Shown: positions 2,201 through 15,549, numbered from the stretch's first letter. The stretch is 32,000 nt of DNA from an uncultured bacterium (GCA_964640155.1 CAZXEQ010000007.1:60001-92000), one strand, 5' to 3'. Numbers and translations: made by a program. Notes: generated by a model from the letters alone, not told the origin.

Positions 2201-5200
2201 TTTTAGAAATTATCCAGCCCGGTTTAAGACAAGAGCAGCTGGACGGCCAGCTTCATCAGAAAGGAAAAGAGGGCCGTGATCGAATTGCAGCAAATGAAAA
2301 GAAATATGCCAAGTTCTTGAAGTTGAGAGAGGAATATCTAGATGCTTTAGATAAGTTGGAAACCATGGACGAGAAGGATAAGTCGGGTATTGCCACATTA
2401 CAAAAAGAGCTGAGCCGAATGGAACAAGAGATACAAACGATGAAAGCTGAGGCTCAGTTGAATTTGGATATCAATGATATGGATCAGCGTTTGGAAAAGG
2501 GTGATAAAAACAATGTGGGTTATCATATTTCTGAACGTCTTTCGGATGTTTTTGGAGGCATTCGTGAAGGTACATCGGATGTGACAAGTGTCACAGTGGC
2601 CAAAGCTTTGATTGAAAAAGTCATTGAAGAAGCGAAAAAATCTAAAAATCTTGCCCTTGTTCAAGAGGTTTTGAAAAATGCTTTTGACATTCGAAAGATC
2701 GAAGGCTTGTCTTTAGAGCAATTAGATCTTCTCAAAGAAGAACTCTTGAGTCAGTTGGCTCGTGGAGACATTCAATTAGATGGACAGGTTTTTGAAGAGG
2801 GCTTAAGTCAGGCAAATATGGATTTCATCGATAGACAGCAGGAAATTGAACGTGCGGAAGAAGACGTCGCCAAACTTAAAAAAGCCTTGGAAGATTATCT
2901 GGGAGAATTTACGAAGGGAGTTCAAAATAATATTGTCGATGGGCTTGTAAAGGTTTATGGACCTAAAGAAGTTGGGACAGGTGGATTAGATCTAGATGAG
3001 ATGAGTGCAGCATTTACTGATAAAATGACAGATTGGATTGGGAAGCAAACTCCTGGACCTATTGCGAGTCGTTGGATACGTTATTGGAAGACTGTCTCTA
3101 AATGGACGGCAGCAAAAAGTAAAGGCTTGAGAAGTCGGTCTGCTACTGTTGGGAACTGGATTGCTAAACATGCCCAAGTTGAAGAGCAAAGAAAATATTT
3201 TGAAAAAGCTGCTCGTGCTTGGAACAAAGCCATTGCTCGCCTTGAGAACAGAGGCGAATTGTCAGATGCATACGTTGCTATTGACCGAAAGGTAGAAACA
3301 GAGTCCATTCAGCCGATGGGATCAAATCCATCGGTACGTCAAGTGACTCAGCTTGTGAAGAAACGTGAAGCCGAGAAGCGTAAAGGTCAGGGCGTGACGA
3401 TAGACTTAGCAAAAGCCAAGGCTACGCGTCAGAAAGCAGGAACAACTGCTGGATCTCCTGAGGCTCAACAACCCAAACGACCTGAAGCTGAGACAAGATC
3501 GCTAACCACATTACAGAAATTGATTCAAACTGCAGCGGTCGATGGGAGAGTTAAAGGAACGACAAGGCTTGCTATCCCAAGTGCCGACGGAAATAAATCT
3601 CAGAGATATGACTTTGACCTTACGGCTACAACAGCTCAAGTTTTGAATAGTAATGAAGCAGCTCGCGAGGCCCTTTATAAGGCTCTTGCATCTGGTCAGC
3701 AAGGGGCAGTTAAGGTTGGAGACCGCACCCTTATTTTTGCTAAGAATGCAAGGGGCTTGGTTCAAATCGTAGATGTATCAGATCTGAAGGCGGATAGTGT
3801 TACTCAGGCTTTGACTGAGGCTCAGACAAGAAAAGATGATGTTAAATTTATCTTTGGAGCGTCTGGCCAAGTGAATATCGTTATTGCAAAACCTGGTCAG
3901 ACTTCTTTAGGTGAGAAAGTCACTTTAACGGGAAGCAATCTTTTTGTACATTCAAATATCAATGAAGGAACTGTTGGGTCAGGGAATACTTTTAGAGATT
4001 CGAATCTTTCAAATGCTCAAGTGGGCAATAATAACAGTTTCAATCGAGTAGAAGCGTCAGATGTCACGGTTGGAAATGAATCTCAATTAACCAGGGTAAA
4101 AGTAAATAGTGCTGAAGTTGGAAATGCTTCAAAATTAGAAGTGGTTTCAGCGGTAACAGTCGTTGTAGGTGAAAATTCTCAACTTAAAGATGTACGTGCG
4201 GATCGATCTGTTGTTGCGGGTGATCAAGCTCGGTTAGAAAATGTGACGGCAGAATCAATCGTCGCTGGAGATCGCTCTAGAATGAAGTCAGTGACAGGCC
4301 GCAACGTTGTTGCTCAAGAAGGTGCAGATGTTGAACTCATGAATGCTCAAGCCCTCAATGCTCCTTCCGGAGATTTGACTTTTGGGAAGAATGAAGTTAA
4401 GAGAGGTGGATATAAAGAAGGCGTTTATGAAACAACAGGAGTTTCTGACCGAACGGCTCTTATTGGGCAGATGGAGCATGTTAGAGCAACTGAAAAAGAA
4501 TTATTTGGTGAAACACCTTGGGAAACAATTAAAGGAAAACTCAAAGGTAAAGTAGACAGTCTTATTACCTTGCTTCGCAATCAAGAGCCAACGGGTAGAT
4601 TGAAATGGGGTAAAAAATTCTTAAAGTCAATTGGAACTTACTTCAAAACTTTTGATGAAAGACAAAGGGAACAATCAACTCGAGATCGTGAAAGTGAACA
4701 AAATTTAAGAGCGGATGCGGCAGCTGAAACCCTTTATCCCAATTTTTCAACACCTGCAAGTGAGGTTTATGAAGGTTTAAACAGAAATCTATTTGGCGAA
4801 GAGGAAATGACTCATGTTGGTTTTATCATGGGAACATTAAGTGAAGAAGCGATGGCAAAAGCTATTGAAAGTGGCGTTTTGGAAGAGGGAGAAGATTCGT
4901 CTCAAAGAGTTAGTCCGTCTCCTCGTGCGGTTGCAGAAGGTCTTATTGATTTTGCACAGAGAATTTTAGACTCGGCTAAGGATCAGAGCCCAGCTGATCA
5001 AGAAGTAGCTCAGAAAAAGGTAGAAGCGCTTTGGGAAGCTGCTTTAAAAGTAGATCCTCGTCATGCAAAGACTTTACTCAGAATGGCAGAAACATTGTGG
5101 ACTCGATCACAAGGGAAAAACTTGGAGGCTTCTGAGAGAGAAGAATTAAAGAAGAACTCTCTTGCGTTATATCGGTTGGCTTATCGCGAAGATCCTTCGG

Positions 5201-8200
5201 ATGCTGAAACAGTGGAATCTTATGCGAATGTTTTGATTTCTCAGAACAAATCTGCTGAAGCTATTAAAATGGCTGAACGTTTGGTGAAGGAAAATAAAAC
5301 AAGAGAAAATAAACTTCTCTTAGGAAGAATATTAATGGCTTCTGGTAAGTTTTCTGAGGCCATGAATGTTTTCAGAAAGAATGGAGTTGTCTCTAAGAAA
5401 GTGGAACAGCGTTTGACACAATTAGAAGGCAAGGCAGGCGAGTTAGCTAAAAAGAGAGCAGAATTAGCAAATTTAGATAAACCGAAAAAAGGTGGTTTCC
5501 CAGGTGGAATGTCTCCTGAAATGCTTCAGGGAATGGATCCGGAGATGCTCGGTCAGAATCCAGATCTACTTAGCCAATTGATGGGTGGAGGAGAGCAAAG
5601 GGAATCTACACCTGAAGAGAAAGCCCAGATTGCAGAGCAGAAGAAAAAGTTGGGAGAAGAAATAGAGGTTCTTAGTAAGGGAACAGAAGATTTTGGAATA
5701 ACATTAGAGGAGCTTACTTCTGCTGGTGAAAAGATATCCTCTCAAGGTTTGGCACAAATTTTAATGAAACTCTACGGAGGAAAAATATCTTTAGAAAAAG
5801 CTAAACTTTTAGCGAAGACACTTCGTGAGTTGATGAATACACATCAAGAACTTTCAAAGATGAATGTTGCCCTTCTTCTCGCTATCAATGCAGAAGATTC
5901 TGATTCAATTCCAAGTCTTAAAGCAAAGATGATGAGTCAATTAGCTACTCAAGAAAAAGACATACATACACAAAGGGTGTATGCCTTGGCGGCTGCTTTC
6001 TATAATGAACAGGCCCAAGCTATTTCCGAATTGACACGCCGTCATCCAGAATTAAAAGGTCAAGATCTTTCAAGATTCTTACCCAATATGGAAATTTCTC
6101 AAGTGACTCCTGAGGTAGAAACACCTGCTGTACCGGATCAGACTGAAGCTGCTAAACAAAGCGAGGCTTTGGTAAAAGAAATAGCGGCTCAACAGGAAAG
6201 AGTTGAAGCTCTTAAGAAAGAATCGAAAGAACCTCAAGGAAACCTCGTTGACATACTCACATTATCTGAAGAATCTCAATCCTATGACGAAGATATTAAA
6301 GCTCAGGAAGAAGTGATTAGGAATGCAAAGGCCGAGAGAGACGAAGCTCGTCGCGTACTGACACTTTATAAAATGACGAAAGCTATGGATGAAGTCCAAA
6401 CTCAAGAGCAGGTGATCAATGCATTAAACCAGAAGATTTCAGATGCTCAGAGAAAAATAGAGAATCTTAGGAAGATGTCCTTAAGTCAAAATCTTAGGAA
6501 TGAGATGAGGGCCCGGCAAGGTGATTTTGTGGCTTCCAAAACTCAAGCCGATACAGAAGAAGCAAAAGCTACTCGTGAGCGGTATCTCATTCACGTGACA
6601 AGAGAACTTCAGCAAGCAGAAGAAAAGTTAGGCTCTCTGAAATCTCAACAAAAATGGTCAAATCGTGCGACGCGTGCAACAGAGGCCGTCTTGAACTTTT
6701 CATCGGCTCTCAAAGGTAAAGCGAAGAAGGTGGTTGTGCGCTTACAGTCATTACGACAAAAGCCAAAATTGGTTCCACGTGTTACAGAACAATCACTGGA
6801 AGCTTTAAAGAAGTATTTAAATATGCAAGCGATTGCTCTAAATATCATGGAACAATTACCTGCTCCTTCAGAGCAAACAGCTAAAGATGCTTATGCCAAA
6901 ACTTCTGAAGATTTAAAAGCACAAGCTGTTGTTTGGGAAGAAGAAATGTCAGAAGTTTTGAAGGCACAGCCAGAATTGAAAGATCATTTTATAGAGTTGA
7001 TGGGTATTGATACAACGGACATTTCTTCCACTCCTGCTTACAAAGTGAAACTACTGAAACATTGGGCCGCTGCCATTAAGGAACTGGCTGAAACGATGGA
7101 TGCTAAGGACGAGAAGCGAGCAGCATATATGAAGTTGGTTGAGACCCTTGAGGCAAAAGCCAAAGTTGCGGAAGCTGAAGCGAAGAAGATCGAAGACGAA
7201 AAAGCCAAAGTCCAAGCCGCTGAAGCTGAGGCTAAGAAAGTTAAGCCTGTGAATGTAAATGAAGCTGGTGTGGAAGATCTGATGAAAGTTCAGGGAATAA
7301 CGAAGGTTTTGGCCCAGGCGATTGTTCAAGCTCGTCAACAATTGACTATCTCGGGAAAGCCGGGTCCATTCCGAAGTCTCTCAGATTTATTCTTGGTTCC
7401 CGGCTTGAGACGTTTATTTCCTATGAGCATAGATGAATTAGAAGATCGATATGCAACGATAAGTGCTCAGCTTAAAGTAGAGACAACAAAACCTGATTCT
7501 CCAGAAGTTTTAAAACAGAGACAATCTTTACAAGGCGAGCTTCAAAGACTTTCTTCTCTACATCAAAGCGTGAAGAAATTTGCTCAAAATATTACTTTTG
7601 GAGAAGAGGGTACTGTCTATTATCCTGAAACAGTAGAGCAAAGGGTGATGGAGGCCTTAGAATCAGAAATTCAACGGAGAAGTGTTCCACATTTGGAATT
7701 CCTTCGTAATGAGTTAGCTAGAATTAAGGCTGAAAAAGTACGATGTCTTAAAGAAACTTCAAATTCTGATGTTAAAGCGCGTAAGACTGCTTTGAATGAA
7801 TATGCTGAATTGGAAAAAGAAGAGAAGCGCTATATTGCATTGGAGAAGAAACTACAGAGTAAGACCCTTTCGGAAGTGATAGAAGTTGTAACTCAGCTCG
7901 AATTAAATCCTTTGATGAAAGCTTATAGTAAAATTTTAATGCAGTTGGCAAAATTAGGTGAGAGCAATCTTACAGTTCAAGAACATGCGAAACGCTATGA
8001 AGCTTTAAGAAGAGATATGGTTAAGCTTAATCGGCAGTTTTCAGATTTATCTGTACAAACTGATCAGGTAAAAAATGTAATGGAAAGTCTAAAGAATTAT
8101 ACAAGTCAGATGACCGATTATCTTCTTGTAGCTCGGCGCGTCAATCGTGTTTCATCTTTAGCTGAAAATCTTCGAAGGCAGTTCAATGAAAATGAAGGGA

Positions 8201-9180
8201 CTTATGGCGTTTCAAATTTCTTTGAAAATGCAGCAAGATTTGTGAGAGCTGAGTTGACGCGTGAATATGGGAATTCAGAAGATACAACGATTGACCACTT
8301 AGGAGACTTGTATCTTTTAGTTTTTGAGTATCATTCATTGAGTGATCAGCAAAAGGAAGCTTTGGGAAATATTGCGAGGAACATTGATAATCCTGATGTG
8401 AGAAGTGGAATGGTGCAAGTCCTAGAAATTATGAAAGGTACTATTTCACTACAGAATGGGCAATTGGGAAGCCTTAAAGCTTTATTAGGACAGTTTTTTA
8501 AACAGCTTCCTAAAGCTTTAGAAATTAAAATTCTAGAAAATGTGATTCAAAGATATGAAAATATTTTAGCCAAAAACACCAGTAATATAGAGGTGAAAAC
8601 AATATTAGGTCTCTTATATGCTTCCCAAATTCAATCAGGGGTTACTTTAAATTTGGAAACTTTACTAAAAGTGAAAGGTTATCTTGAAGAAAGTTTAGTT
8701 GCAGACGCTCAAAATGCGGAGAAGATCTCTGCATTGAAAGAAGTGAGACTTCAAATTCAAAAAGAACTTGTTAGACAAGCTAAAGCGATGGCAGACAAAC
8801 CTGAAAATGCTGCTAATGCAGATGAGTATACGGATAGAGTTTTGGATATTCAAAATTGGCTTCGGGCATATCATCAAAATTTAGATTCTGCTGAGCAAGA
8901 AGCTTTAGAGAAAGAATTAAGAAATCAATTGCCCAAAGAAGCTGTGGATAAAGCGCGTGAAACATTGTTTGTAGATGGTTTAATGAAGCTTGCCAAATCT
9001 GGGAAGCCATTGACTTTAAGAGCAGTGGGCCCCGTGTTAGCCCCGCTCTTTGGCCCTGTTGCGCGTATCATTCGTGATGGTTGGGTCGACATTGATCAAC
9101 CTGTTCATTCTCCTTCTACTCCTCTTCCAAAGAAAGTATCCAATCCTTCCTCTGGAATCGATCATAGCCGATCGACGTAA
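1..9180 (+). CDS. Giant SecA-like ATPase fusion protein, 5'-truncated by the window edge (>3059 aa). SecA-type motor followed by ~2350 aa of coiled coil, solenoid repeats, TPR-like repeats and a ComEA-like HhH module
   Basis: Single open frame of 9177+ nt with no stop until TAA at 9178-9180. SecA-like motifs appear in the canonical order (see finding). The Walker A region expected ~100 aa before DEVDS is not in the window, so the gene continues upstream and the TTG at nt 4 is probably not the start. Confidence 0.85.
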   Translation, partial: TLKKGRLNELPEELKNEAALNEWKDRLKKVLKDEELASRLTFIIEPLLKQIHLSDQRKNLNQIAEQLGNKDKSTRARIEAFEASLNQRITEKEAAIEALRELENKGMEAKRLAFTAPGVTYIGIGDLAFEKLGDRARKLSERFFPQGGKKLHKANVDEVDSVLEDQALMDYVMAQPSGDLSAIEKEMWTFAGSVSEEIRPFGLERKIGLQKEEIQAQETEQVVGAKLTLFTKDKNNDVLRLTKAGRQRAMDAYNVLRQKMMGRKELPSMPEFIKMVEKSLKARELRKRGEDYEIDDASGSIRLIEKTTGGINDRRDSALGIALDVLNSDRVRTLGDNRTSAKISGGDVIKELFEGFSGYSGSVDTREARKEFEKGFGKKSTQFVRIPNYSASKRNILAPKIFKNDNAAQAWLEEQAREVMQHTTAIITLRSVKQVEDLAAKMEGKKEFKGKVLIFRGSENDEQRRLLLAQASEPGYVLIQTMIGGRGTDWGLADFGLTKEMLDEALKGKGLSEGLRKAQLDQLEGITKKLAGNTAKLTPAEVTQARNMSQTELQSQDDRLNEQVNFLEEFNKTGESLDQALETARKQKGLAEKAFNAASANAAPAEIKVELSLGRWLASRRLEVLEALQKSGQSVNEELKNAREAKEKASRKLLVRDLEKFFENLTEGADEALRKKLDQVCQRTFMKFAYGFYIMRNVFRSRRVDIQVDGRGARQADPGTSIEFSSLEETGADILEIIQPGLRQEQLDGQLHQKGKEGRDRIAANEKKYAKFLKLREEYLDALDKLETMDEKDKSGIATLQKELSRMEQEIQTMKAEAQLNLDINDMDQRLEKGDKNNVGYHISERLSDVFGGIREGTSDVTSVTVAKALIEKVIEEAKKSKNLALVQEVLKNAFDIRKIEGLSLEQLDLLKEELLSQLARGDIQLDGQVFEEGLSQANMDFIDRQQEIERAEEDVAKLKKALEDYLGEFTKGVQNNIVDGLVKVYGPKEVGTGGLDLDEMSAAFTDKMTDWIGKQTPGPIASRWIRYWKTVSKWTAAKSKGLRSRSATVGNWIAKHAQVEEQRKYFEKAARAWNKAIARLENRGELSDAYVAIDRKVETESIQPMGSNPSVRQVTQLVKKREAEKRKGQGVTIDLAKAKATRQKAGTTAGSPEAQQPKRPEAETRSLTTLQKLIQTAAVDGRVKGTTRLAIPSADGNKSQRYDFDLTATTAQVLNSNEAAREALYKALASGQQGAVKVGDRTLIFAKNARGLVQIVDVSDLKADSVTQALTEAQTRKDDVKFIFGASGQVNIVIAKPGQTSLGEKVTLTGSNLFVHSNINEGTVGSGNTFRDSNLSNAQVGNNNSFNRVEASDVTVGNESQLTRVKVNSAEVGNASKLEVVSAVTVVVGENSQLKDVRADRSVVAGDQARLENVTAESIVAGDRSRMKSVTGRNVVAQEGADVELMNAQALNAPSGDLTFGKNEVKRGGYKEGVYETTGVSDRTALIGQMEHVRATEKELFGETPWETIKGKLKGKVDSLITLLRNQEPTGRLKWGKKFLKSIGTYFKTFDERQREQSTRDRESEQNLRADAAAETLYPNFSTPASEVYEGLNRNLFGEEEMTHVGFIMGTLSEEAMAKAIESGVLEEGEDSSQRVSPSPRAVAEGLIDFAQRILDSAKDQSPADQEVAQKKVEALWEAALKVDPRHAKTLLRMAETLWTRSQGKNLEASEREELKKNSLALYRLAYREDPSDAETVESYANVLISQNKSAEAIKMAERLVKENKTRENKLLLGRILMASGKFSEAMNVFRKNGVVSKKVEQRLTQLEGKAGELAKKRAELANLDKPKKGGFPGGMSPEMLQGMDPEMLGQNPDLLSQLMGGGEQRESTPEEKAQIAEQKKKLGEEIEVLSKGTEDFGITLEELTSAGEKISSQGLAQILMKLYGGKISLEKAKLLAKTLRELMNTHQELSKMNVALLLAINAEDSDSIPSLKAKMMSQLATQEKDIHTQRVYALAAAFYNEQAQAISELTRRHPELKGQDLSRFLPNMEISQVTPEVETPAVPDQTEAAKQSEALVKEIAAQQERVEALKKESKEPQGNLVDILTLSEESQSYDEDIKAQEEVIRNAKAERDEARRVLTLYKMTKAMDEVQTQEQVINALNQKISDAQRKIENLRKMSLSQNLRNEMRARQGDFVASKTQADTEEAKATRERYLIHVTRELQQAEEKLGSLKSQQKWSNRATRATEAVLNFSSALKGKAKKVVVRLQSLRQKPKLVPRVTEQSLEALKKYLNMQAIALNIMEQLPAPSEQTAKDAYAKTSEDLKAQAVVWEEEMSEVLKAQPELKDHFIELMGIDTTDISSTPAYKVKLLKHWAAAIKELAETMDAKDEKRAAYMKLVETLEAKAKVAEAEAKKIEDEKAKVQAAEAEAKKVKPVNVNEAGVEDLMKVQGITKVLAQAIVQARQQLTISGKPGPFRSLSDLFLVPGLRRLFPMSIDELEDRYATISAQLKVETTKPDSPEVLKQRQSLQGELQRLSSLHQSVKKFAQNITFGEEGTVYYPETVEQRVMEALESEIQRRSVPHLEFLRNELARIKAEKVRCLKETSNSDVKARKTALNEYAELEKEEKRYIALEKKLQSKTLSEVIEVVTQLELNPLMKAYSKILMQLAKLGESNLTVQEHAKRYEALRRDMVKLNRQFSDLSVQTDQVKNVMESLKNYTSQMTDYLLVARRVNRVSSLAENLRRQFNENEGTYGVSNFFENAARFVRAELTREYGNSEDTTIDHLGDLYLLVFEYHSLSDQQKEALGNIARNIDNPDVRSGMVQVLEIMKGTISLQNGQLGSLKALLGQFFKQLPKALEIKILENVIQRYENILAKNTSNIEVKTILGLLYASQIQSGVTLNLETLLKVKGYLEESLVADAQNAEKISALKEVRLQIQKELVRQAKAMADKPENAANADEYTDRVLDIQNWLRAYHQNLDSAEQEALEKELRNQLPKEAVDKARETLFVDGLMKLAKSGKPLTLRAVGPVLAPLFGPVARIIRDGWVDIDQPVHSPSTPLPKKVSNPSSGIDHSRST
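3925..4356 (+). repeat. Nine tandem 16-residue (48-nt) protein repeats, consensus V-G-x-x-S-x-L-x-x-V-x-x-x-x-x-V; predicted beta-solenoid
   Basis: Exact 16-aa register read from the translation: LTGSNLFVHSNINEGT / VGSGNTFRDSNLSNAQ / VGNNNSFNRVEASDVT / VGNESQLTRVKVNSAE / VGNASKLEVVSAVTVV / VGENSQLKDVRADRSV / VAGDQARLENVTAESI / VAGDRSRMKSVTGRNV / VAQEGADVELMNAQAL. The repeats are divergent at DNA level. Confidence 0.7.
5026..5385 (+). other. TPR-like helical repeat region inside the giant protein
   Basis: ~34-aa helical units with an A/L/Y pattern, e.g. ALYRLAYREDPSDAETVESYANVLISQNKSAEAIKMAERLV and LLLGRILMASGKFSEAMNVFRKN. Judged by eye only. Confidence 0.45.
7249..7404 (+). other. ComEA-like helix-hairpin-helix (HhH) DNA-binding module inside the giant protein
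   Basis: VNVNEAGVEDLMKVQGITKVLAQAIVQARQQLTISGKPGPFRSLSDLFLVPGL fits the ComEA C-terminal pattern (I/V)N(I/V)N.A..E.L..(L/V).GI....A..I...R...G.F.S..DL..V.G(I/L). Confidence 0.6.
8914..9180 (+). repeat. Direct repeat DR1: last 89 codons of the giant gene, in frame; left boundary of the TA insertion
   Basis: Aligns with 11662-11930 with 16 substitutions and one 2-nt indel (C4 run versus C6 run). Similarity starts abruptly at 8914/11662 and stops exactly at the stop codons. Confidence 0.95.
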
Positions 9181-9347: not shown

Positions 9348-9596
9348 ATGGTTACCAGAGTTCAGAAATGGGGAAATAGCCAGGGTCTTCGTGTTAGCAA
9401 AGAGATACTGGAAAAGGTTCATATTGCTATTGGAGACATGGTAGATATTAGAGTTCAAAAGGATTGTATTCTTATTCAGCCCGTTCATCAGGTGCGTGGG
9501 AAATACAGTTTGCGAGATCTCGTACGTCAAATGCCTAAAGGTTATAAGCCGGGTCGGGAAGCATGGAGTGAACCTATTGGTAAGGAAGTTTGGTAA
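9348..9596 (+). CDS. mazE: MazE/AbrB-SpoVT family antitoxin
   Basis: 82 aa. N-terminus MVTRVQKWGNSQGLRVSKEIL has the MazE/AbrB swapped-hairpin signature (KWGNS..(L/V)R(I/V)). Strong RBS. Stop TAA abuts the toxin ATG. Confidence 0.85.
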   Translation: MVTRVQKWGNSQGLRVSKEILEKVHIAIGDMVDIRVQKDCILIQPVHQVRGKYSLRDLVRQMPKGYKPGREAWSEPIGKEVW

Positions 9597-9932
9597 ATGT
9601 TGAACTATGTACCTCATAAAGGGGATTTGGTCATACTGACATTTGATCCTCAAGCGGGTCATGAACAGAAAGGACGAAGACCCGCACTGATTGTAAGTAA
9701 TAATTTGTTTAATCAATCTACGGGTTTTGCCATTGCTTGTCCCATTACAAACACGGATCGTAAAATCCCATTTCATGTAAAAATCCATCCATCTTCTTCA
9801 CTCACAGGTTTCGTGATGGTAGACCAGGTTAAATCGATAGATTATCGAACCAGACAGGTCAAATATGTTGAACGAGCCCCTGTAGCATTGTTAGAGGAAG
9901 TATTAAGTATTTTAGATGCCAGTCTTTTTTAA
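9597..9932 (+). CDS. mazF: MazF/PemK family endoribonuclease toxin
   Basis: 111 aa. YVPHKGDLVILTFDPQAGHEQKGRRPALIVSNNLFNQSTGFAIACPITN... parallels E. coli MazF/ChpB (YVPDMGDLIWVDFDP..GSEQAGHRPAVVLS...). Typical antitoxin-then-toxin order. Confidence 0.9.
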   Translation: MLNYVPHKGDLVILTFDPQAGHEQKGRRPALIVSNNLFNQSTGFAIACPITNTDRKIPFHVKIHPSSSLTGFVMVDQVKSIDYRTRQVKYVERAPVALLEEVLSILDASLF

Positions 9933-10014: not shown

Positions 10015-10929
10015 TTAACCCCATGGACCAGAATTTTTCCATTCTTGATCAAAATTTTTATTTTGATCAATTGCCTTAATGGGCTTCAGAAGAAATTTTT
10101 CAATTGCCTCGGCAACATCTTTAAGCTTGTCCGGAACATTTTTGATTTTTCCCTTTGTCAGAAAAGCTTTCCAAAGCATTTGACGATCAGAGCTCTCGTC
10201 ATAAATTTGTTCAGCAAAAAGTGGAGATTTTGTAGGAATTACTGTCTTTCGATGGGTAAAAGTTTTTTTGAGAGCTTCTACAAGAGTCTGACCTTTGAAA
10301 TGAAATTGCTGAGCCATGAGCCAAAGATCATAAAAATCTTTCATTCTGCTATTAAGAAGTCCAAGCTTTATCATAGATTCAAATTTTTCAGCGACAACAC
10401 TTTCTTGCGGGTATCCTTTTAAATGTGGTTTTGGAAAATCTAAAATTACAGGATAATCAATCACTATAGATTTAGGATAAATCATATCTCCAAATCCAAA
10501 GTCTATTTGCATCGATATTCGTGAACGCTCAAGAAAACCTTTAAACTTAATTCTCACACCTTCGTAGTCTGCATCCTCTTTGATTTTTTGCCCTTTGATA
10601 GTGTTAGGATCATATACAAGACCATCTGATATGACATTAACTCTACAAATCTTTTTAACTACTTCTTCAATCTTGTTTACTTGATTGTCATAATGGGCAA
10701 GGAAATCAATGTCCAATGTTGCTCGTCTTTCAGGCACTTGCCATACTGTAAACATCAATGCCCCTTTTAGAATGAATTTATTGGCATATTCAGATTGACT
10801 GAGTCGATAGAGGAAGCGCTCCATCGCATAATATTGAAGGATCTCTGCAAAGGGTCGATTTAATTCTATTGCTTTATTCTGAATTCTATTTCGAACGGAT
10901 GCTTCAATATTTTTAATTTTTTGCGTCAC
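10015..10929 (-). CDS. AbiEii/AbiGii-family nucleotidyltransferase toxin (DUF1814, type IV TA)
   Basis: The family-typical motif RATLDIDF follows GALMF..W. The size fits the family. The ORF track start is 10974. I prefer GTG at 10929 because it gives VTQKIKNIEASVRNR..., a typical family N-terminus, and a 4-nt GTGA overlap with the abiEi stop. Confidence 0.8.
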   Translation of the reverse strand: MTQKIKNIEASVRNRIQNKAIELNRPFAEILQYYAMERFLYRLSQSEYANKFILKGALMFTVWQVPERRATLDIDFLAHYDNQVNKIEEVVKKICRVNVISDGLVYDPNTIKGQKIKEDADYEGVRIKFKGFLERSRISMQIDFGFGDMIYPKSIVIDYPVILDFPKPHLKGYPQESVVAEKFESMIKLGLLNSRMKDFYDLWLMAQQFHFKGQTLVEALKKTFTHRKTVIPTKSPLFAEQIYDESSDRQMLWKAFLTKGKIKNVPDKLKDVAEAIEKFLLKPIKAIDQNKNFDQEWKNSGPWG

Positions 10930-11528
10930 AATATTGTCTCCAAAAGTGGTTTGATAATATTTGCAACACGGCAAATATCAGCATAGAACATAATTTCCTT
11001 GGGAGATATACCTTTTTCAAGAACCGCTGTTTTAAGGGCGTCTCGTGCAATATTGATTCCTATTTTATTTCTAAACTTAAAGCAATCAGCCACAGTTTTA
11101 GCCACATTATAAACCTTCACCTTATAACCATCTATTTCTTGCTCTACAATTCCAGCGTTCCAAGTTTCTTTGGAAAAATGATAGTAATGAACAGGAGGAT
11201 AATTAATTTTATTGGCATGGTTCCCTTGTGGTATAGCAAGATCTATGAGCCTTGGTATCTCACTGGTTACTTCATGAAATGCCAGGGCAGAGAGTAGACA
11301 AATCACTCCTTTAGGAGATTTCATTGAAACCATAATAAGATCAGGATTGGATAGGGAAGTGCTCATCGTAAGTTTATACAGAGCACGATCTATTTTCTGA
11401 ATTTGTTTCAAATGCAGTAGGACTTTAAGATCAGATTTGTTAAAACCTGTATGGATAATGTCAGAGTATGTAGCTAGTCCTCTCCTCTTTTTGAAAAAGT
11501 TAATCAAACGCTCTCTTTTAGAGATCAT
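10926..11528 (-). CDS. AbiEi-family antitoxin / transcriptional regulator (type IV TA)
   Basis: 200 aa. The N-terminal winged-helix-like segment (...LATYSDIIHTGFNKSDLKVLLHLKQIQKIDRALYKL) resembles the AbiEi_4 domain. It lies immediately upstream of, and overlaps, the DUF1814 toxin gene. Confidence 0.8.
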   Translation of the reverse strand: MISKRERLINFFKKRRGLATYSDIIHTGFNKSDLKVLLHLKQIQKIDRALYKLTMSTSLSNPDLIMVSMKSPKGVICLLSALAFHEVTSEIPRLIDLAIPQGNHANKINYPPVHYYHFSKETWNAGIVEQEIDGYKVKVYNVAKTVADCFKFRNKIGINIARDALKTAVLEKGISPKEIMFYADICRVANIIKPLLETIL

Positions 11529-12476: not shown

Positions 12477-13027
12477 AAATGGATAGGGGAGTTAAAAATG
12501 CCTATACACTTGTTGAAGTACTCATTGTGGCTTCTATTATTGGTGTTCTTGCGAGTTTCTTACTCAATGCAGCTATTAATAGTCGTAAGAAAGCCAATTT
12601 AACTAAAACACATGCCTTATTAGAATCTATCAGTGCGGCTCTCAGAATGTATCAAGATGATTTTGGTACTTATCCTCCTCAAAACGTGATTTATCGTTAT
12701 GGAACTCAGATTGCTGCTTCATCCGCAGATTGTCTTTATTATTATTTAGGCGCAACTTTTAAAAGAGGGGTGAATGCGTCTATTTTTGCAGGCCCTTATA
12801 TGAAATTTACGGGAGATGAACTTCAAACGACTCAAGTTTCTGCTTGTGATTTTGATGGGGATGGCGCTATTGACGATGATTTAAAAAGAATTTTAGATCC
12901 ATGGGGACAGGCCTTGCGATTTCGTAGTTCACCTACTCAAAATCTTTCAAGTTTCGATCTTTATTCCTTAGGGCCTGATAAGACGAATAATAGTGGATCA
13001 GGAGACGATATTAATAATTGGGAATAA
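12473..13027 (+). CDS. Second GspG-like pseudopilin
   Basis: MKMDRGVKNA|YTLVEVLIVASIIGVLASFLL (Ala instead of Gly at -1, Glu at +5). C-terminus DPWGQALRF...LGPDK...GDDINNW. The ATG at 12473 overlaps the upstream stop (ATGA), so I prefer it to the track's TTG at 12458. Confidence 0.8.
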   Translation: MKMDRGVKNAYTLVEVLIVASIIGVLASFLLNAAINSRKKANLTKTHALLESISAALRMYQDDFGTYPPQNVIYRYGTQIAASSADCLYYYLGATFKRGVNASIFAGPYMKFTGDELQTTQVSACDFDGDGAIDDDLKRILDPWGQALRFRSSPTQNLSSFDLYSLGPDKTNNSGSGDDINNWE

Positions 13028-13091
13028 ACCCTTCGAGAAATGCTGATCTGCTGTGTTTCCTGGCGTGAATTAAAACTTTCAAGGAAATTTA

Positions 13092-13230
13092 TGCGCCATG
13101 CAGGGATCGGCGCCTTCGGGTCTTCGCTTCGCTACGCCCTCCGGTCGGCCACCCGTCCCGACTAGATGTCATCAATCATGCACAGCATGATCGATATTTA
13201 TATTCTGTCGGGGGACTCCATTCGATCCCT
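13092..13230 (-). other. tRNA-appended GC-rich module A (downstream of tRNA-Lys); ends with an 18-nt copy of the tRNA-Lys 3' end
   Basis: Read on the minus strand: AGGGATCGAA (13230-13221), complementary to the tRNA-Lys T-loop TTCGATCCCT. Then GGAGTCCCCCGAC, a 10-bp hairpin (13171-13195), GTCGGGA, the 17-mer CGGGTGGCCGACCGGAG (13155-13139), a small hairpin and GAAGGCGC. It ends with CGATCCCTGCATGGCGCA (13109-13092), identical to 13316-13299. Confidence 0.85.
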
Positions 13231-13298
13231 TCAGGAATACTTTCTAGTCTTTAAGGTAGAATATGCGCGTGATTTATAAGAAGAGAATTTTTGAAAAT

Positions 13299-13371
13299 TG
13301 CGCCATGCAGGGATCGAACCTGCGACCCACTGATTAAGAGTCAGTTGCTCTACCAACTGAGCTAATGGCGC
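13299..13371 (-). tRNA. tRNA-Lys (anticodon CTT)
   Basis: The reverse complement folds as a cloverleaf: GCGCCAT TA GCTC AGTTGGTA GAGC A ACTGA CTCTTAA TCAGT GGGTC GCAGG TTCGATC CCTGC ATGGCGC A. 73 nt, no encoded CCA. Confidence 0.95.
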
Positions 13372-13450
13372 TTTAAATTAAGTCGAAATAATAGCAGGTC
13401 GCCTTCTAAATAGGTAGTCAAAATTTTATCTTTTTTGATACCATCTTATC

Positions 13451-13480
13451 TTGCATTACTTCTCCATCTTGTCTTATATT
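13451..13480 (+). promoter_or_regulatory. Putative promoter of tRNA-Leu
   Basis: TTGCAT (13451-13456), 18-nt spacer, TATATT (13475-13480), 14 nt before the tRNA 5' end. Confidence 0.5.
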
Positions 13481-13493
13481 GTACGTTCTTTAT

Positions 13494-13575
13494 GCCGCGG
13501 TGGCGGAACTGGCAGACGCGTAGGATTTAGGATCCTATGCCGTAAGGCGTGTGGGTTCAAGTCCCTCCCGCGGCA
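13494..13575 (+). tRNA. tRNA-Leu (anticodon TAG), class II with long variable arm
   Basis: GCCGCGG..GCG GAACTGGCAGA CGC G TAGGA TTTAGGA TCCTA TGCCGTAAGGCGT GTGGG TTCAAGT CCCTC CCGCGGC A. 82 nt, no encoded CCA. The T-stem has one T:T mismatch (positions 50:64). Confidence 0.9.
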
Positions 13576-13634
13576 AGGAATTGGAATAAGAATTTTTTGA
13601 AAAGAAAGCTCACAGACTTTTGGTTCTTTACGTT

Positions 13635-13762
13635 GGGACTTGAAGGGAGCCCCGACACTTTAATGATGCACATCTGCCAGCGGCCGATGTGCGACGTTTA
13701 GTTGGGGCGGGTGGCCGACCGGAGTCCCAAAGGGACGGAGGCGCCAAGTCCCTCCCGCGGCA
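13635..13762 (+). other. tRNA-appended GC-rich module B (downstream of tRNA-Leu); ends with an 18-nt copy of the tRNA-Leu 3' end
   Basis: GGGACTTGAA (13635-13644), complementary to the tRNA-Leu T-loop TTCAAGTCCC. Then GGGAGCCCCGAC, a hairpin (13668-13692), GTTGGGGC, the 17-mer CGGGTGGCCGACCGGAG (13708-13724), hairpin GTCCC-aaa-GGGAC and CGGAGGCGC. It ends with CAAGTCCCTCCCGCGGCA (13745-13762), identical to 13558-13575. Confidence 0.85.
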
Positions 13763-13785
13763 GAATTTGTGGATTAAATGTTCAG

Positions 13786-13825
13786 TCCTCGCTTCACTTG
13801 AAGAGAGGATGGGATTAAGTTTTTG
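13786..13825 (+). terminator. Possible intrinsic terminator after module B
   Basis: Hairpin TCCTC-g-CTTC actt GAAG-a-GAGGA (13786-13809). A T5 run begins at 13820, displaced about 10 nt from the stem. Confidence 0.35.
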
Positions 13826-13831
13826 AAAATG

Positions 13832-13859
13832 TTGTAAATTCTTAAATACACGCTATAAT
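13832..13859 (+). promoter_or_regulatory. Putative promoter of tRNA-Gly
   Basis: TTGTAA (13832-13837), 16-nt spacer, TATAAT (13854-13859). Confidence 0.5.
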
Positions 13860-13897
13860 TATGCCTCATTTTAGAATTTAGGTTTTTGATTTAGAAA

Positions 13898-13972
13898 GCG
13901 GCGGTAATTCAGGGGTAGAATGCCTGCTTGCCAAGCAGGATGTCGTGGGTTCAAATCCCATCCGCCGCTCCA
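13898..13972 (+). tRNA. tRNA-Gly (anticodon GCC), CCA encoded
   Basis: GCGGCGG TA ATTC AGGGGTA GAAT G CCTGC TTGCCAA GCAGG ATGTC GTGGG TTCAAAT CCCAT CCGCCGC T CCA. Confidence 0.95.
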
Positions 13973-14027
13973 ACTGTTTAGTAAGAATATAGCGAAGGAA
14001 TGTTGCTAGTTTTAAGAGCGTCACAGA

Positions 14028-14196
14028 GGGATTTGAATAGGAGGCCCGACCAAAATATTAGTAAATCATGCAGTGCATGATTTGCGACTACTAGGAGGGC
14101 CGGGTGGCCGACCGGAGGGTGAGTCCTGAAAGGACGAATCCCGGAGGCGCCAAATCCCATCCGCCGCTCCAACTGTTTAGTGAGAATATAGCGAAG
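14028..14196 (+). other. tRNA-appended GC-rich module C (downstream of tRNA-Gly); ends with a 46-nt copy of the tRNA-Gly 3' end plus trailer
   Basis: GGGATTTGAA (14028-14037), complementary to the tRNA-Gly T-loop TTCAAATCCC. Then GGAGGCCCGAC, a hairpin (14063-14083), GGGCC, the 17-mer CGGGTGGCCGACCGGAG (14101-14117), hairpin GTCCT-gaa-AGGAC and CGGAGGCGC. It ends with CAAATCCCATCCGCCGCTCCAACTGTTTAGTGAGAATATAGCGAAG (14151-14196), which matches 13952-13997 with one mismatch. Confidence 0.85.
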
Positions 14197-14298
14197 TTCC
14201 CTTCTAAGCTAAGAGGGGTGAGGGGAGTTATAAAAAAGTAACCCCTCAAACTCCCCTTTGAAATAAAAGGGAGAATATAAAATAAATAGGAGTTCTTT

Positions 14299-15549
14299 GT
14301 GAAAGTTGTTGTTGAAGATCAAAAGCCTTGTCAAAAAGTTTTAAAGATTCAATATCCAGCTGAGAAATTAAAGTCGGAACATCAAACGATGCTCACTGAA
14401 TTTCAAAAGCAGGCAAAGATTCCAGGGTTTCGACCGGGTAAAGCTCCTATTAAAACAGTCGAAACAAAATTTTTTGATGATATTAAGTCAGAAGTTTTGA
14501 GAAAAATTTTGCCTGAGATTTGTAAAGAGGCTTTGCAATCGGAAAAAGTTTTAGCTGTCAGTGATCCTTCTGTGGATCAGATGGAATATGATTTAGAAAA
14601 AGGACTCTCATTTCGTGCTGTTGTAGATATTCCTGCCAAAGTCACTTTGCCTGATTATAAGAAGATTAAACTAGAAAAAAAATCGACTGAAGTTACAGAG
14701 GAAGATATTCAAAAAGCCATCGATGGTCTTCGTGAACATCATGGCGTTTTTGAGCCCGTTGCGCCGCGTCCCCTACAATTAGGAGATTTTGCGATTGTTG
14801 ATTATACTTCTGTGAGTCATGAGAAAACGCCTAAAAGAGATCATCGAAAAAATGTTTTAATCTCTATTCAGAAGGAAGGAGAAAATCATTTAACGGATCA
14901 ATTGATTGGGCTAAAGCCAGGGGAGTCAAAGCAAGTTGTTTTGAAAGCAGAACACGAGCATCCTGAAATGATCTTTGATGTAAAACTTCATGAGATTAAA
15001 CAGAAAAAACTTCCTGAATTAGATAGTGAATTTTTGAAAACTTTGGGTGAAGTTAAAACAGTAGATGAACTTCGCGAAAAAGTGAAGTCAGATATCAGTT
15101 CTTATCGTGAAAATGCATCGCAAGAGGCTTTAAAAAATGAAGCCATTAAAATCTTAAGTGAAAGAGTAGATTTTGATGTTCCTGCATCTCAGGTGAGTCA
15201 TGAGTCTGAGAAGCTTTACACAGAGCTTGTGAATCGTGTGCGACAAGGAGCTGTTTCATCCAAGAGTTTGCAAGATCCACAAGTGCTTAAAGAGCTAGAA
15301 GCCGAAGCCAAAAGAAGAGTCAAAGTGGCTTATTTATTGTATGAAATTGCTCAGAAAGAAAACTTAAAAGTCTCGGATGATGAGTTGAATCAAGATTTAG
15401 AAAAGGCAGCACAAAAATTAGGAAAAAATGTAGAAGAGATTCGTGCTGATTTTGAAAAAAATAATCGCTTAGAAGCTTTAAGAGCCAGACTCACTCAAGA
15501 TAAGGTTATAGATTTCATTTTGAAGAGTGCTATAATCAAAAATCAGTAA
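14299..15549 (+). CDS. tig: Trigger factor
   Basis: 416 aa. GFRPGKAP ribosome-binding signature near the N-terminus. GTG start preceded by AGGAG. Lies upstream of clpP-clpX as in many bacteria. Confidence 0.95.
   Translation: MKVVVEDQKPCQKVLKIQYPAEKLKSEHQTMLTEFQKQAKIPGFRPGKAPIKTVETKFFDDIKSEVLRKILPEICKEALQSEKVLAVSDPSVDQMEYDLEKGLSFRAVVDIPAKVTLPDYKKIKLEKKSTEVTEEDIQKAIDGLREHHGVFEPVAPRPLQLGDFAIVDYTSVSHEKTPKRDHRKNVLISIQKEGENHLTDQLIGLKPGESKQVVLKAEHEHPEMIFDVKLHEIKQKKLPELDSEFLKTLGEVKTVDELREKVKSDISSYRENASQEALKNEAIKILSERVDFDVPASQVSHESEKLYTELVNRVRQGAVSSKSLQDPQVLKELEAEAKRRVKVAYLLYEIAQKENLKVSDDELNQDLEKAAQKLGKNVEEIRADFEKNNRLEALRARLTQDKVIDFILKSAIIKNQ

Follow-up and report, generated by a model that had tools for sequence, protein, structure and literature searches.

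The locus that is described here raises the question of what the GC-rich modules are that follow three tRNA genes, each module ending in a copy of the 3' end of its own tRNA. The modules are located in a stretch of 32,000 nucleotides (nt) from an uncultured bacterium (GCA_964640155.1 CAZXEQ010000007.1:60001-92000), which as a whole we refer to as the window. An initial annotation, made from the sequence alone, had described them as an unclassified family and had offered three proposals: (a) miniature integrative elements, essentially attP-only minicircles, mobilised in trans; (b) non-autonomous elements that carry a guide; or (c) structured RNAs that are co-transcribed with the tRNA. By comparing the three modules with related loci from genomes and metagenomes, we have arrived at a tentative preference: the modules would be copies of an insertion element that is non-autonomous, non-coding and specific for the 3' ends of tRNA genes, moves by way of RNA, is guided by its own fold and is mobilised in trans.

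In this region of the window, tRNA-Lys(ctt) (13299-13371, minus strand; Rfam tRNA score 74.7 bits), tRNA-Leu(tag) (13493-13576, plus strand) and tRNA-Gly(gcc) (13898-13972, plus strand, with its CCA encoded) are identified by both ARAGORN and Rfam, and each of them is followed, at its 3' side and on its own strand, by one module; the layout is the same in all three cases, as the coordinates, a common 17-mer and the tRNA copies bear out. The Lys module, whose target and anchor is tRNA-Lys, is read on the minus strand and consists of a 68-nt 5' part, which we call the trailer (13231-13298), and of a scaffold (13110-13230; covariance model 87.9 bits, E 2e-25, with the alignments and the fold in agreement), the successive pieces of which are an anti-T 10-mer (13221-13230), a junction, the hairpin P2, the 17-mer (13139-13155), the hairpin P3 and a terminal GGCGC (13110-13114); then comes the right-hand direct repeat, an exact 18-nt copy (13092-13109) of tRNA positions C56-A73 (13299-13316). 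On the plus strand, the Leu module consists of a trailer (13576-13634) that contains a CTCACAGAC motif, a scaffold (13635-13744; 97.2 bits, and the fold) with its anti-T at 13635-13644, 17-mer at 13708-13724 and GGCGC at 13740-13744, and an exact 18-nt copy (13745-13762) of C56-A73 (13558-13575). The Gly module, also on the plus strand, is bracketed by longer repeats: the left repeat (13952-13997) runs from C56 to 25 nt beyond the tRNA and is followed by a unique 5' part (13998-14027), by the scaffold (14028-14150; 93.6 bits; anti-T 14028-14037, 17-mer 14101-14117, GGCGC 14146-14150) and by the right repeat (14151-14196), which comprises C56 through CCA (14151-14171) and 25 nt of trailer.

All three copies begin at C56, directly after the GGTT of the T-loop, and the anti-T 10-mer that opens each module is complementary to the T-loop and to the first bases of the 3' strand of the T-stem. 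The distances of 207, 187 and 199 nt between each tRNA end and its copy are as initially annotated; so are the trailer lengths (55-68 nt as measured), the high G+C content of the modules (0.56-0.64, against approximately 0.35-0.40 in the surroundings) and the lack of coding capacity, no open reading frame (ORF) of at least 80 amino acids overlapping positions 13028-14298. Three details have needed revision: the copy is exact for Lys and Leu, while the Gly repeat extends 25 nt into the trailer, exact over its first 31 nt and with one mismatch over 46 nt; the stretch GGAG(N)CCCGAC is present, but is in fact the junction GAAGGGAG followed by the 5' strand of helix P2; and the 17-mer CGGGTGGCCGACCGGAG, the count of which is zero in 100 shuffles even with three mismatches permitted, is invariant within the window, but not across the family (it reads CGAGTGGCCGACCGTAG in the Lys module of locus L098 and ends ...CCGTAG in the Gly module of locus L259).

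The family is large. In a pattern scan of genomes, with one genome per species, at least 118 matches were listed, most of them chance matches in GC-rich actinobacterial DNA, from which an nhmmer profile set apart at least about 25 true loci; a tighter pattern gave 54 loci in the metagenomes of the Joint Genome Institute (JGI), of which about 52 are true. With a covariance model that was based on 20 sequences, at least 108 copies (90 distinct) from 79 sources have been identified, and in the window only the three known ones; the further copies from the pattern and covariance-model scans exceed one hundred. The hosts, as labelled, are Omnitrophota (many), Auribacterota, Planctomycetales, Elusimicrobia, TA06, Ratteibacteria and one metagenome-assembled genome (MAG) labelled Chlamydiae. 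Nearly all copies are located 13-80 nt 3' of a tRNA gene and on the same strand; the tRNAs concerned represent approximately 30 isoacceptor types for 17 amino acids. In all resolvable cases, the 3' copy is immediately preceded by GGTT, AGTT or, once (L221), GGCT, and spans at least positions 56-73 (at least 18 nt). Both the anti-T and the 3' copy follow the adjoining tRNA: the contiguous pairing in P1, the helix that the two form, averages 8.2 base pairs with the cognate tRNA and 3.8 with non-cognate ones.

The description of the family as unclassified also stands. Searching positions 12900-14400 of the window against Rfam has returned the tRNAs only, both at the gathering score and at E<=10, and nothing has been found at E<=1 in five other loci of the family; we have thus looked both for a match to a known family and for an absence of further copies correlated with their tRNA, and have encountered neither. 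A 15-mer scan of viral contigs gave 83 loci, all of them chance matches in GC-rich coding DNA that lack the features of the module, BLAST searches of phages and plasmids gave nothing relevant, and full-text literature searches have returned no description of the family.

The comparison of the copies has revealed a common fold. The consensus order is anti-T, GAAGGGAG, P2, CG, GGTGGCCGACCGGAG, P3 (variable), CGRAGGCGC and the tRNA sequence from C56. The anti-T is the complement of tRNA positions 54-65 and is 8-14 nt long; P2 is GC-rich at its base, and its apex, of 20-150 nt, is variable; P1 is formed by the anti-T and the tRNA-derived sequence after GGCGC and, because it runs on, on its 3' strand, into the invariant helix GGTGGCC.../...GGCGCC, the whole is a three-way junction. 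Among the 90 distinct sequences, standard pairs occupy 94.7% of the cells, against 80.2% in shuffled alignments and 35-44% with slid partners, counts that lean towards the model, to which the alignment was fitted, the slid controls using the same alignment; double-sided changes occur in 15 of the 21 pairs, and the observed covariation score is reached by none of 500 shuffles. About 36 of the 119 consensus positions are conserved at 90% or more, and unpaired purines account for many of these. Pairs of the G·U and U·G kind are common (20 of 90 sequences at one P2 pair), and a U·G wobble preserves P1 where the copy or the tRNA has changed (L098 Gly, L175); these pairs and wobbles identify the tRNA-sense strand as the one that folds. 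The wobbles, like the invariant junctions rich in purines, have the look of RNA. In P3, GCGAAGC, the classic ultra-stable DNA mini-hairpin, or another C(GNA)G triloop is very frequent, GNRA tetraloops being rare, and the P2 apices are perfect palindromes with loops of 3-4 nt; the folding energies for DNA and for RNA do not discriminate between the two.

Some additional elements recur beside this scaffold. A motif, CTCACAGAC or GTCACAGAG, is located 0-20 nt 5' of the anti-T in the window (13610-13618 and 14020-14028) and in the trailers of L109 and L259, i.e. in elements of the Auribacterota type. In six Omnitrophota trailers (L098, L103, L106, L164, L175 and L144), an extra conserved AT-rich hairpin, ACTTTTT...AAAAAGTA, starts from the tRNA end, and a second conserved piece, CGGYGYCGTG-hairpin-CTACGRC, is also present; L103 and L164 have in common an 84-nt segment with a hairpin, which is placed differently relative to the module. 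The modules of L206 and L217, behind tRNA-Leu(taa), are related to each other; in both, P2 is very long, and the hairpin loop GCGACGAG(N)AAGGAGC recurs in it. They are unlike at the right end, L217 keeping only 9 nt of tRNA copy before a ribosome-binding site and start codon, and L206 ending in what appears to be the 3' end of a different tRNA (CGAATCCGGTACTGTCA). The core 15-mer CGGGTGGCCGACCG (13708-13722 in the window) is a near-palindrome, for which a 14-nt self-pairing with two G·A and two G·U is possible; it could drive dimerisation or bind a dimeric protein in duplex DNA.

Whether the modules are inserted can be examined by comparing occupied with empty tRNA sites, as the initial annotation had suggested. 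The trigger factor (gene tig) encoded beside the Gly module of the window is 95% identical to that of the MAG GCA_041906865.1, labelled Candidatus Auribacterota, an assembly that contains both L109 and the orthologous locus L259. In L259, the Leu and Gly modules are present, the Leu trailer being approximately 97% identical to that of the window, and the Lys site is empty: between flanks that hardly differ, the window has exactly 207 extra nt, i.e. the 68-nt trailer, the scaffold up to GGCGC and one 18-nt repeat of C56-A73, a sequence that is single in L259. The native trailer TAAATTTCC, which follows tRNA-Lys itself in L259, follows the right-hand copy in the window, and the 68-nt trailer is therefore part of the element. 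Omnitrophota provide a second, independent case: an element follows tRNA-Gly in L098 and L106, the site is empty in L103 and L164, and the repeat extends from C56 as far as the encoded CCA. In both cases, the sites differ by exactly the element and one repeat, which supports an insertional element, although precise deletion would account for either pair as well. The direct repeat extends from C56 to at least the discriminator base, so that the tRNA gene stays intact.

The modules are also subject to turnover. Tandem units occur in L093 (identical units with a period of 120 nt), L107, L144 and at L098 Lys; in L207, decay has affected the core and the copy of the distal unit, which has another P2, but not the tRNA-proximal unit, a polarity that suggests repeated addition next to the tRNA. 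The Gly module of L259 is a chimera: its right third (core, P3, copy and flank) is shared with the window Gly module, the remaining two-thirds, on the left, are paralogous to the Leu-type element, and a paralogous copy of the Leu trailer (approximately 78%) precedes it; recombination has thus taken place with breakpoints at the tRNA 3' end and at the conserved core, and the anti-T (GGGATTTGA versus GGGACTTGA) differs by exactly the one base that separates the two T-loops. The P2 subtype of the window Gly module recurs at tRNA-Thr(ggt) in L109, and also in L260 and L200, and therefore one scaffold lineage serves different tRNAs within one genome lineage. Since one subtype occurs at different tRNAs and a Leu-type left half at Gly, it is unlikely that a protein reads the variable T-arm sequence; target recognition would rather be either guided by nucleic acid or aimed at the universal GTTC and the shape of the T-arm.

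Decayed modules are found at Leu in L200 and L260 and in L152, degenerate copies next to intact tRNAs in L162 and L164, and a few copies of the 3' part only in L152, L203 and L241. Cargo occurs at three loci, in or beside the module. In L203 (206-547, plus strand), a gene for a 113-residue protein of the 23S-rRNA intervening sequence (IVS) type (PF05635, E 4e-30; a family that includes Avd of the diversity-generating retroelements) occupies the place of P2, with the GGAGG of the module 6 nt before its ATG; like the IVSs of rRNA, it is inserted at the apex of a hairpin. In L241, a weak BrnT/BrnA-like pair replaces the 5' part, and in L200, a two-gene cassette is located beside a truncated module. 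At the other extreme, the Gly-tig module occurs in four lineages with a tig of only 50-95% identity, and its P2 apex has undergone compensatory changes. The 46-nt Gly repeats, with one difference in the window, are diverged in L260, which implies gene conversion between repeats.

Several rearrangements have been observed at these sites. The Lys-Leu segment of the window is inverted in L200 (reverse complement; from the MAG labelled Chlamydiae), with breakpoints near oppositely oriented modules, and the modules may promote inversions. In the Logan contigs L256, L257 and L258, with the same tig or one of 76% identity, the assemblies break 147-260 nt 5' of tig, in or at the Gly module, which is what a repeat that misleads assemblers would be expected to cause. 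Partial tRNA-Met genes, from the anticodon loop to CCA and without the 5' half, precede modules in L182, L222 (1346-1410) and L230 and look like footprints of other islands; in one of these pieces, GGTTCA[CTCCGAAGGAGCCCTCGAGCGAAGCGAGAGGC]AATCCTGTCCCCGCAACCA, the T-loop is broken by a 32-nt module-like fragment with almost no repeat.

With regard to transcription, the orientation of the module is always that of the tRNA, and most modules lie between the tRNA and its terminator or the next tRNA. Promoter-like sites are located before tRNA-Leu and tRNA-Gly, and none was found before a module. A terminator-like hairpin is present in 2 of 52 trailers, so that a terminator between tRNA and module has been rejected as a general feature. 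Our search for a partner enzyme agrees with the initial remark that there is no recombinase nearby: in flanks of 8-15 kb around 80 loci, no mobile-element gene recurs (recombinase, reverse transcriptase, tnpA/tnpB, cas12, tnsB/tnsC or integrase), and all-against-all clustering of 526 and then 1068 flanking ORFs has returned only syntenic housekeeping genes (tig, clpP, lon). Nor does such a gene occur among the window ORFs scanned with Pfam, a scan that left out a giant ORF at 4-9180; the ORFs identified are tig, clpP, clpX, serA, purA, uppS, cdsA, dxr, rseP, proS, nusA, infB, rbfA and truB, together with two pseudopilins, a MazEF pair and AbiEii, and two further ORFs have no match.

These observations can be assembled into a mechanism for the RNA-mediated element that we prefer. 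The unit consists of the variable 5' part and the three-way-junction scaffold ending in GGCGC, bracketed by the direct repeat of the tRNA. In the single-stranded, tRNA-sense form, P1 presents a double-stranded image of the target T-arm, stacked on the invariant core; an enzyme acting in trans would recognise the fold, and the anti-T and the 3' copy would specify the target, a guide role that the covariation of the anti-T with its target fits. The element RNA would be made by read-through from the tRNA promoter; its tRNA-identical 3' tail would anneal to the antisense strand of a tRNA gene nicked at 55|56, similarly to the primer-binding site of a prime-editing guide RNA (pegRNA) or of the RNA of R2 and of short interspersed elements (SINEs), and the annealed RNA would be copied into DNA, with the 3' end of the element joined to C56 in the T-loop. 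The mutual complementarity of the 5' and 3' arms would correspond to the topology of a pegRNA. If the right-hand repeat is derived from the target, the 3' arm would be retargeted automatically, and the anti-T would follow via few substitutions.

Of the initial proposals, the mobile insert and the guide are therefore retained in this scheme, the former through sites that differ by the element and one repeat and the latter through the anti-T that covaries with its target, while a minicircle that is no more than an attP leaves the covarying hairpins and the approximately 36 conserved scaffold positions unexplained. The resemblance to R2, SINEs and pegRNAs is that the modules are specific for the gene of a stable RNA, apparently co-transcribed and non-autonomous, that a target-homologous 3' tail can anneal to a nicked strand, and that the 5' and 3' segments are complementary as in pegRNAs; target-primed reverse transcription would be expected to leave a duplication with one fixed end and a variable length, together with 5' truncations, and the repeat has a fixed start at C56 and a variable end, but most ends cluster at the tRNA end, and only a few copies (L152, L203, L241) are reduced to the 3' part. 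Unlike R2 and SINEs, the modules are bacterial, have no poly(A) or 3' UTR-type tail, have a repeat that mostly stops at the tRNA end, and have no reverse transcriptase or endonuclease partner in the flanks of the examined loci. Priming by a mature tRNA has been rejected, the junctions at CCA-less genes being without CCA.

Several points weigh against such an RNA-mediated insertion. To our knowledge, group II introns are the only bacterial case of target-primed reverse transcription; the flanks and the Pfam-scanned window ORFs have yielded no reverse transcriptase, nuclease or recombinase as a partner, and no autonomous copy was seen. The tRNA-Met subfamily, and only this one, has a strong terminator-like hairpin between tRNA and scaffold. 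The frequent C(GNA)G triloops of P3 suit a fold of single-stranded DNA (ssDNA) equally well or better. As a rule, the repeat ends at or just past the tRNA end and not at scattered positions, which would fit a tRNA 3' end borne by the element, in the manner of an integrase-type identity block, as well as a duplication of the target. Finally, the retention of the Gly module with compensatory changes over deep divergence could mean that it has a host function.

The alternative that survives best, a real possibility although on the unlikely side, is that the modules are folded ssDNA recombination sites, like integron attC, the attP(+) of CTX-phi or the ends of IS200/605, and that the unit is a small ssDNA circle composed of C56-73, trailer, anti-T and scaffold. 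By pairing, the anti-T and the tRNA segment of the element would restore the T-arm as a duplex, next to a conserved core for recombinase binding, and a tyrosine or HUH recombinase encoded elsewhere would exchange one strand at 55|56 or after GTTC, to be resolved by replication, with the units becoming cassettes stacked behind the tRNA. Much of the above is in line with this alternative: the small size of the unit (down to the 120-nt period of L093), a P1 that reproduces the target duplex, the DNA-type mini-hairpins that dominate P3 together with the palindromic P2 apices, the polar tandem arrays with cassette-like cargo ORFs (a toxin-antitoxin pair, a small ORF), an enzyme that is not in the flanks, as at the clusters of attC sites lacking integrases (CALIN), a terminator that lies inside some elements, 5' of the scaffold, and a repeat that usually stops exactly at the tRNA end. 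However, retargeting would here yield chimeric tRNAs, given that the element brings its own positions 56-73, yet one scaffold subtype is located at different tRNAs; furthermore, attC keeps structure and not sequence, whereas the modules keep their approximately 36 positions, many in purine-rich unpaired junctions, pairs of the G·U type are frequent, and an integrase is seen at no locus.

A closer comparison with integron cassettes leads to the same mixture. Both have a structured non-coding site of approximately 60-150 nt at the 3' end of the unit, an outer helix partly made of neighbouring or target-site sequence, units that line up in arrays from a single attachment point, small cargo, for example toxin-antitoxin genes, and an enzyme, for the modules a putative one, that acts in trans. 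In contrast to attC, which is attached at the G|TT of attI, the modules are attached at 55|56 of the tRNA T-loop, fold on the tRNA-sense strand and each carry a tRNA 3' end. The attC boxes RYYYAAC...GTTRRRY with G|TT are absent, the outer inverted repeat being the complement of the T-loop (GGGATTTGAA...CAAATCCC); the junction lies after TT, with C as the fourth base from GTT, and no integron integrase (IntI) is encoded in the 8-15-kb flanks of the loci.

The IS200/IS605 elements, including their palindrome-associated relatives (PATEs) and omega-RNAs, and the IS91 and Helitron elements are likewise strand-specific, have structured ends and need no target duplication; a pairing between an internal 'guide' and the flank sets the cleavage site in such elements and may do so in the modules, where the scaffold would similarly extend into the flank to provide a 3' guide. 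The insertion site of IS91 follows GTTC, a sequence that tRNAs have at positions 53-56. The modules differ in having no TnpA, TnpB or Rep gene nearby, in a guide of 8-13 nt instead of 4-5, and in carrying or duplicating 18 nt or more of the target. A PATE with adjacent tnpA/tnpB and matching hairpins was found at none of 80 loci, the left hairpin, when present, being unrelated to P3; the flank after GGCGC is the tRNA sequence that follows GGTT, it is partly paired to the anti-T, and the target is in the same locus.

A bolder version of the RNA-mediated element, which we consider unlikely, is a programmable mobile element that has no protein gene at all: a three-way-junction RNA of about 100 nt, possibly catalytic, the two complementary arms of which would read both strands of the tRNA gene, and which would be written behind the gene by target-primed reverse transcription or by a ribozyme-assisted exchange of the tRNA 3' segment; it would be a natural counterpart of pegRNAs or bridge RNAs, self-retargeting over approximately 30 tRNA species. 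The bridge RNA of IS110 and the seekRNA of IS1111 are similar in that a non-coding RNA of the element has segments that match both target strands and is reprogrammable through RNA. In the modules, however, the two segments overlap and are mutually paired, a separate donor-binding loop is lacking, a repeat of 18-46 nt takes the place of a 2-nt core, and no DEDD recombinase gene is adjacent; identity with IS110 has been rejected, in that two loops and a DEDD gene are replaced by a three-way junction with one target-matched helix.

It is also conceivable, if improbable, that the modules are cis-acting functional RNAs of tRNA operons, which would be co-transcribed with the tRNA and would influence how its 3' end matures, how it folds or whether transcription reads through, whether by cleaving themselves, by serving as processing elements or by exchanging strands with the T-arm and the acceptor 3' strand, to give examples, and which would have spread between tRNA loci by duplication and gene conversion and not by dedicated transposition. 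This is close to the co-transcribed RNA of the initial annotation, which gains support from the constant strand and the position between tRNA and terminator or next tRNA, from the invariant junction purines, as in ribozymes and aptamers, from the Gly-tig module, kept with compensatory changes in lineages with a tig of 50-52% identity, from the conversion that appears to be ongoing between the repeats, near-identical in the window and diverged in L260, and from the presence of a module at three of three window tRNAs. It loses ground because the modules are dispensable (the Lys site is empty in the 95% relative and Leu is decayed in L260 and L200), with degenerate copies at several loci where the tRNA is intact; tandem arrays, chimeras and inserted cargo typify selfish repeats, the repeats run into non-functional trailer, and in the Met subfamily, a terminator precedes the scaffold.

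Known RNAs do not provide a counterpart either. The theta (minimal hepatitis delta virus-like) ribozymes are small structured RNAs that reportedly sit next to phage tRNAs, directly 3' of the gene and tied to the tRNA 3' end; the modules are different in that the 3' strand of P1 comes last, which is incompatible with the topology of these ribozymes, in that they are located 13-78 nt downstream and do not abut the tRNA, carry a copy of its 3' end, have no Rfam match and are absent from the phage collections scanned. Hammerhead and twister have been rejected together with them, with no cmscan match and with a different helix order and different junction sequences, as has any family of Rfam 15 (tmRNA, RNase P, T-box, ribozymes, group I/II introns, Y RNA-like). 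A tRNA-like fold of the 3' copy is excluded by the lack of a cis partner for the acceptor 3' strand, and a T-box-like UGGN/NCCA pairing by a core UGGC that is invariant while the discriminators vary.

A very improbable alternative is that the modules are orphan guide RNAs for a Cas12- or TnpB-like protein encoded elsewhere, with a 3' guide of at least 18 nt and a target that starts from C56 after a T-rich target- or protospacer-adjacent motif (GTT/TTC); they would serve homing, as the delocalised CRISPR RNAs (crRNAs) of V-K-type CRISPR-associated transposons (CASTs), retention, as the omega-RNA of IS200/605, or roadblock regulation, as TldR. The putative 3'-terminal guide does have the sequence of the non-target strand and, with few exceptions, starts immediately after GGTT, its 18-nt minimum is a guide-like length, and tRNA genes are known homing targets of V-K CASTs. 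Nevertheless, omega-RNAs and crRNAs normally abut their protein gene, and tnpB, cas12, tnsB and tnsC are in none of the 80 flanks; the 'guide' has its first 8-12 nt tied up in pairing with the anti-T, the locus would target its own intact tRNA, the repeats of up to 46 nt run into the trailer and are not spacer-like, and GGCT replaces GGTT before one junction (L221). A delocalised V-K crRNA, which would sit in a Tn7-like element inserted 60-66 bp from the protospacer-adjacent motif, has also been rejected on the grounds that tnsB, tnsC, tniQ and cas12k are found neither among the Pfam-scanned window ORFs nor at the loci, the modules being whole units of 120-210 nt.

The least probable alternative is that the modules are classical double-stranded att remnants, i.e. 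attP-only elements of the cis-mobilisable (CIME) type left, and mobilised, by islands of T-loop-targeting tyrosine integrases, the scaffold being an arm region with protein sites: the order tRNA, element, tRNA 3' repeat is that of an integrase island, 120-210 bp is attP-like and footprints of other islands are nearby (e.g. the tRNA-Met 3' halves of L182 and L222), but DNA-binding arm sites do not vary in hairpin sequence while pairing holds, one scaffold for about 30 different T-arm sequences would be hard for core sites read by a protein, GGCGC is not the inverted image of the T-stem half-site, and no flank examined has an integrase. Islands and modules do share insertion at a tRNA gene that is regenerated through a direct repeat of its 3' part, starting in the T-loop as is reported for the T-loop class of integrases (Williams 2002); unlike islands and CIMEs, the modules are 120-210 nt long, have no genes, have a covarying RNA-like fold and an internal T-loop antisense, and use one scaffold for approximately 30 tRNA species. 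An integrase att with an autonomous relative and arm-type sites has been rejected, with no integrase in the flanks and helices that covary, and so have miniature inverted-repeat transposable elements and the palindromic REP/BIME repeats, given an inverted repeat that changes with the tRNA, direct repeats of 18-46 nt and a strictly tRNA-linked location.

Among the tested defining features of the known families compared, only the att-type direct repeat of the tRNA 3' part that brackets the element (18-46 nt from C56, with occupied and empty pairs) is clearly present, and the other defining feature of att sites is lacking. The RNA-mediated insertion element could therefore be new in kind, and whole-genome co-occurrence may yet place the family beside a known recombinase or reverse transcriptase family.

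Elsewhere in the window, two toxin-antitoxin loci are located 5' of the pseudopilin genes, at 9348-9932 (plus strand) and 10015-11528 (minus strand): one consists of MazE (PF04014) and the toxin MazF/PemK (PF02452), and the other of the nucleotidyltransferase toxin AbiEii (PF08843) and an upstream ORF of 200 amino acids without a Pfam match. AbiEii/MenT toxins act on tRNA acceptor ends; no link between the toxin-antitoxin loci of the window and the modules was found. The giant ORF at 4-9180 (plus strand) runs off the window start and encodes more than 3058 amino acids; very long proteins have been reported from these candidate phyla (bioRxiv 10.64898/2026.06.07.730766).

If the scaffold is the handle of an enzyme acting in trans and the arms set the target, the modules would represent a very compact, nucleic-acid-programmed insertion of DNA that spares the target gene; such programmed insertion would be of direct interest beside bridge RNAs, omega-RNAs and CASTs. 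If they are instead a ribozyme or a cis-acting RNA, they would represent a widespread class of structured RNA tied to tRNA 3' ends in poorly known phyla. Either way, the family accounts for assembly breaks and rearrangements at the tRNA clusters of these genomes, and offers a testable system with a covariance model, approximately 90 distinct sequences and defined empty and occupied sites.

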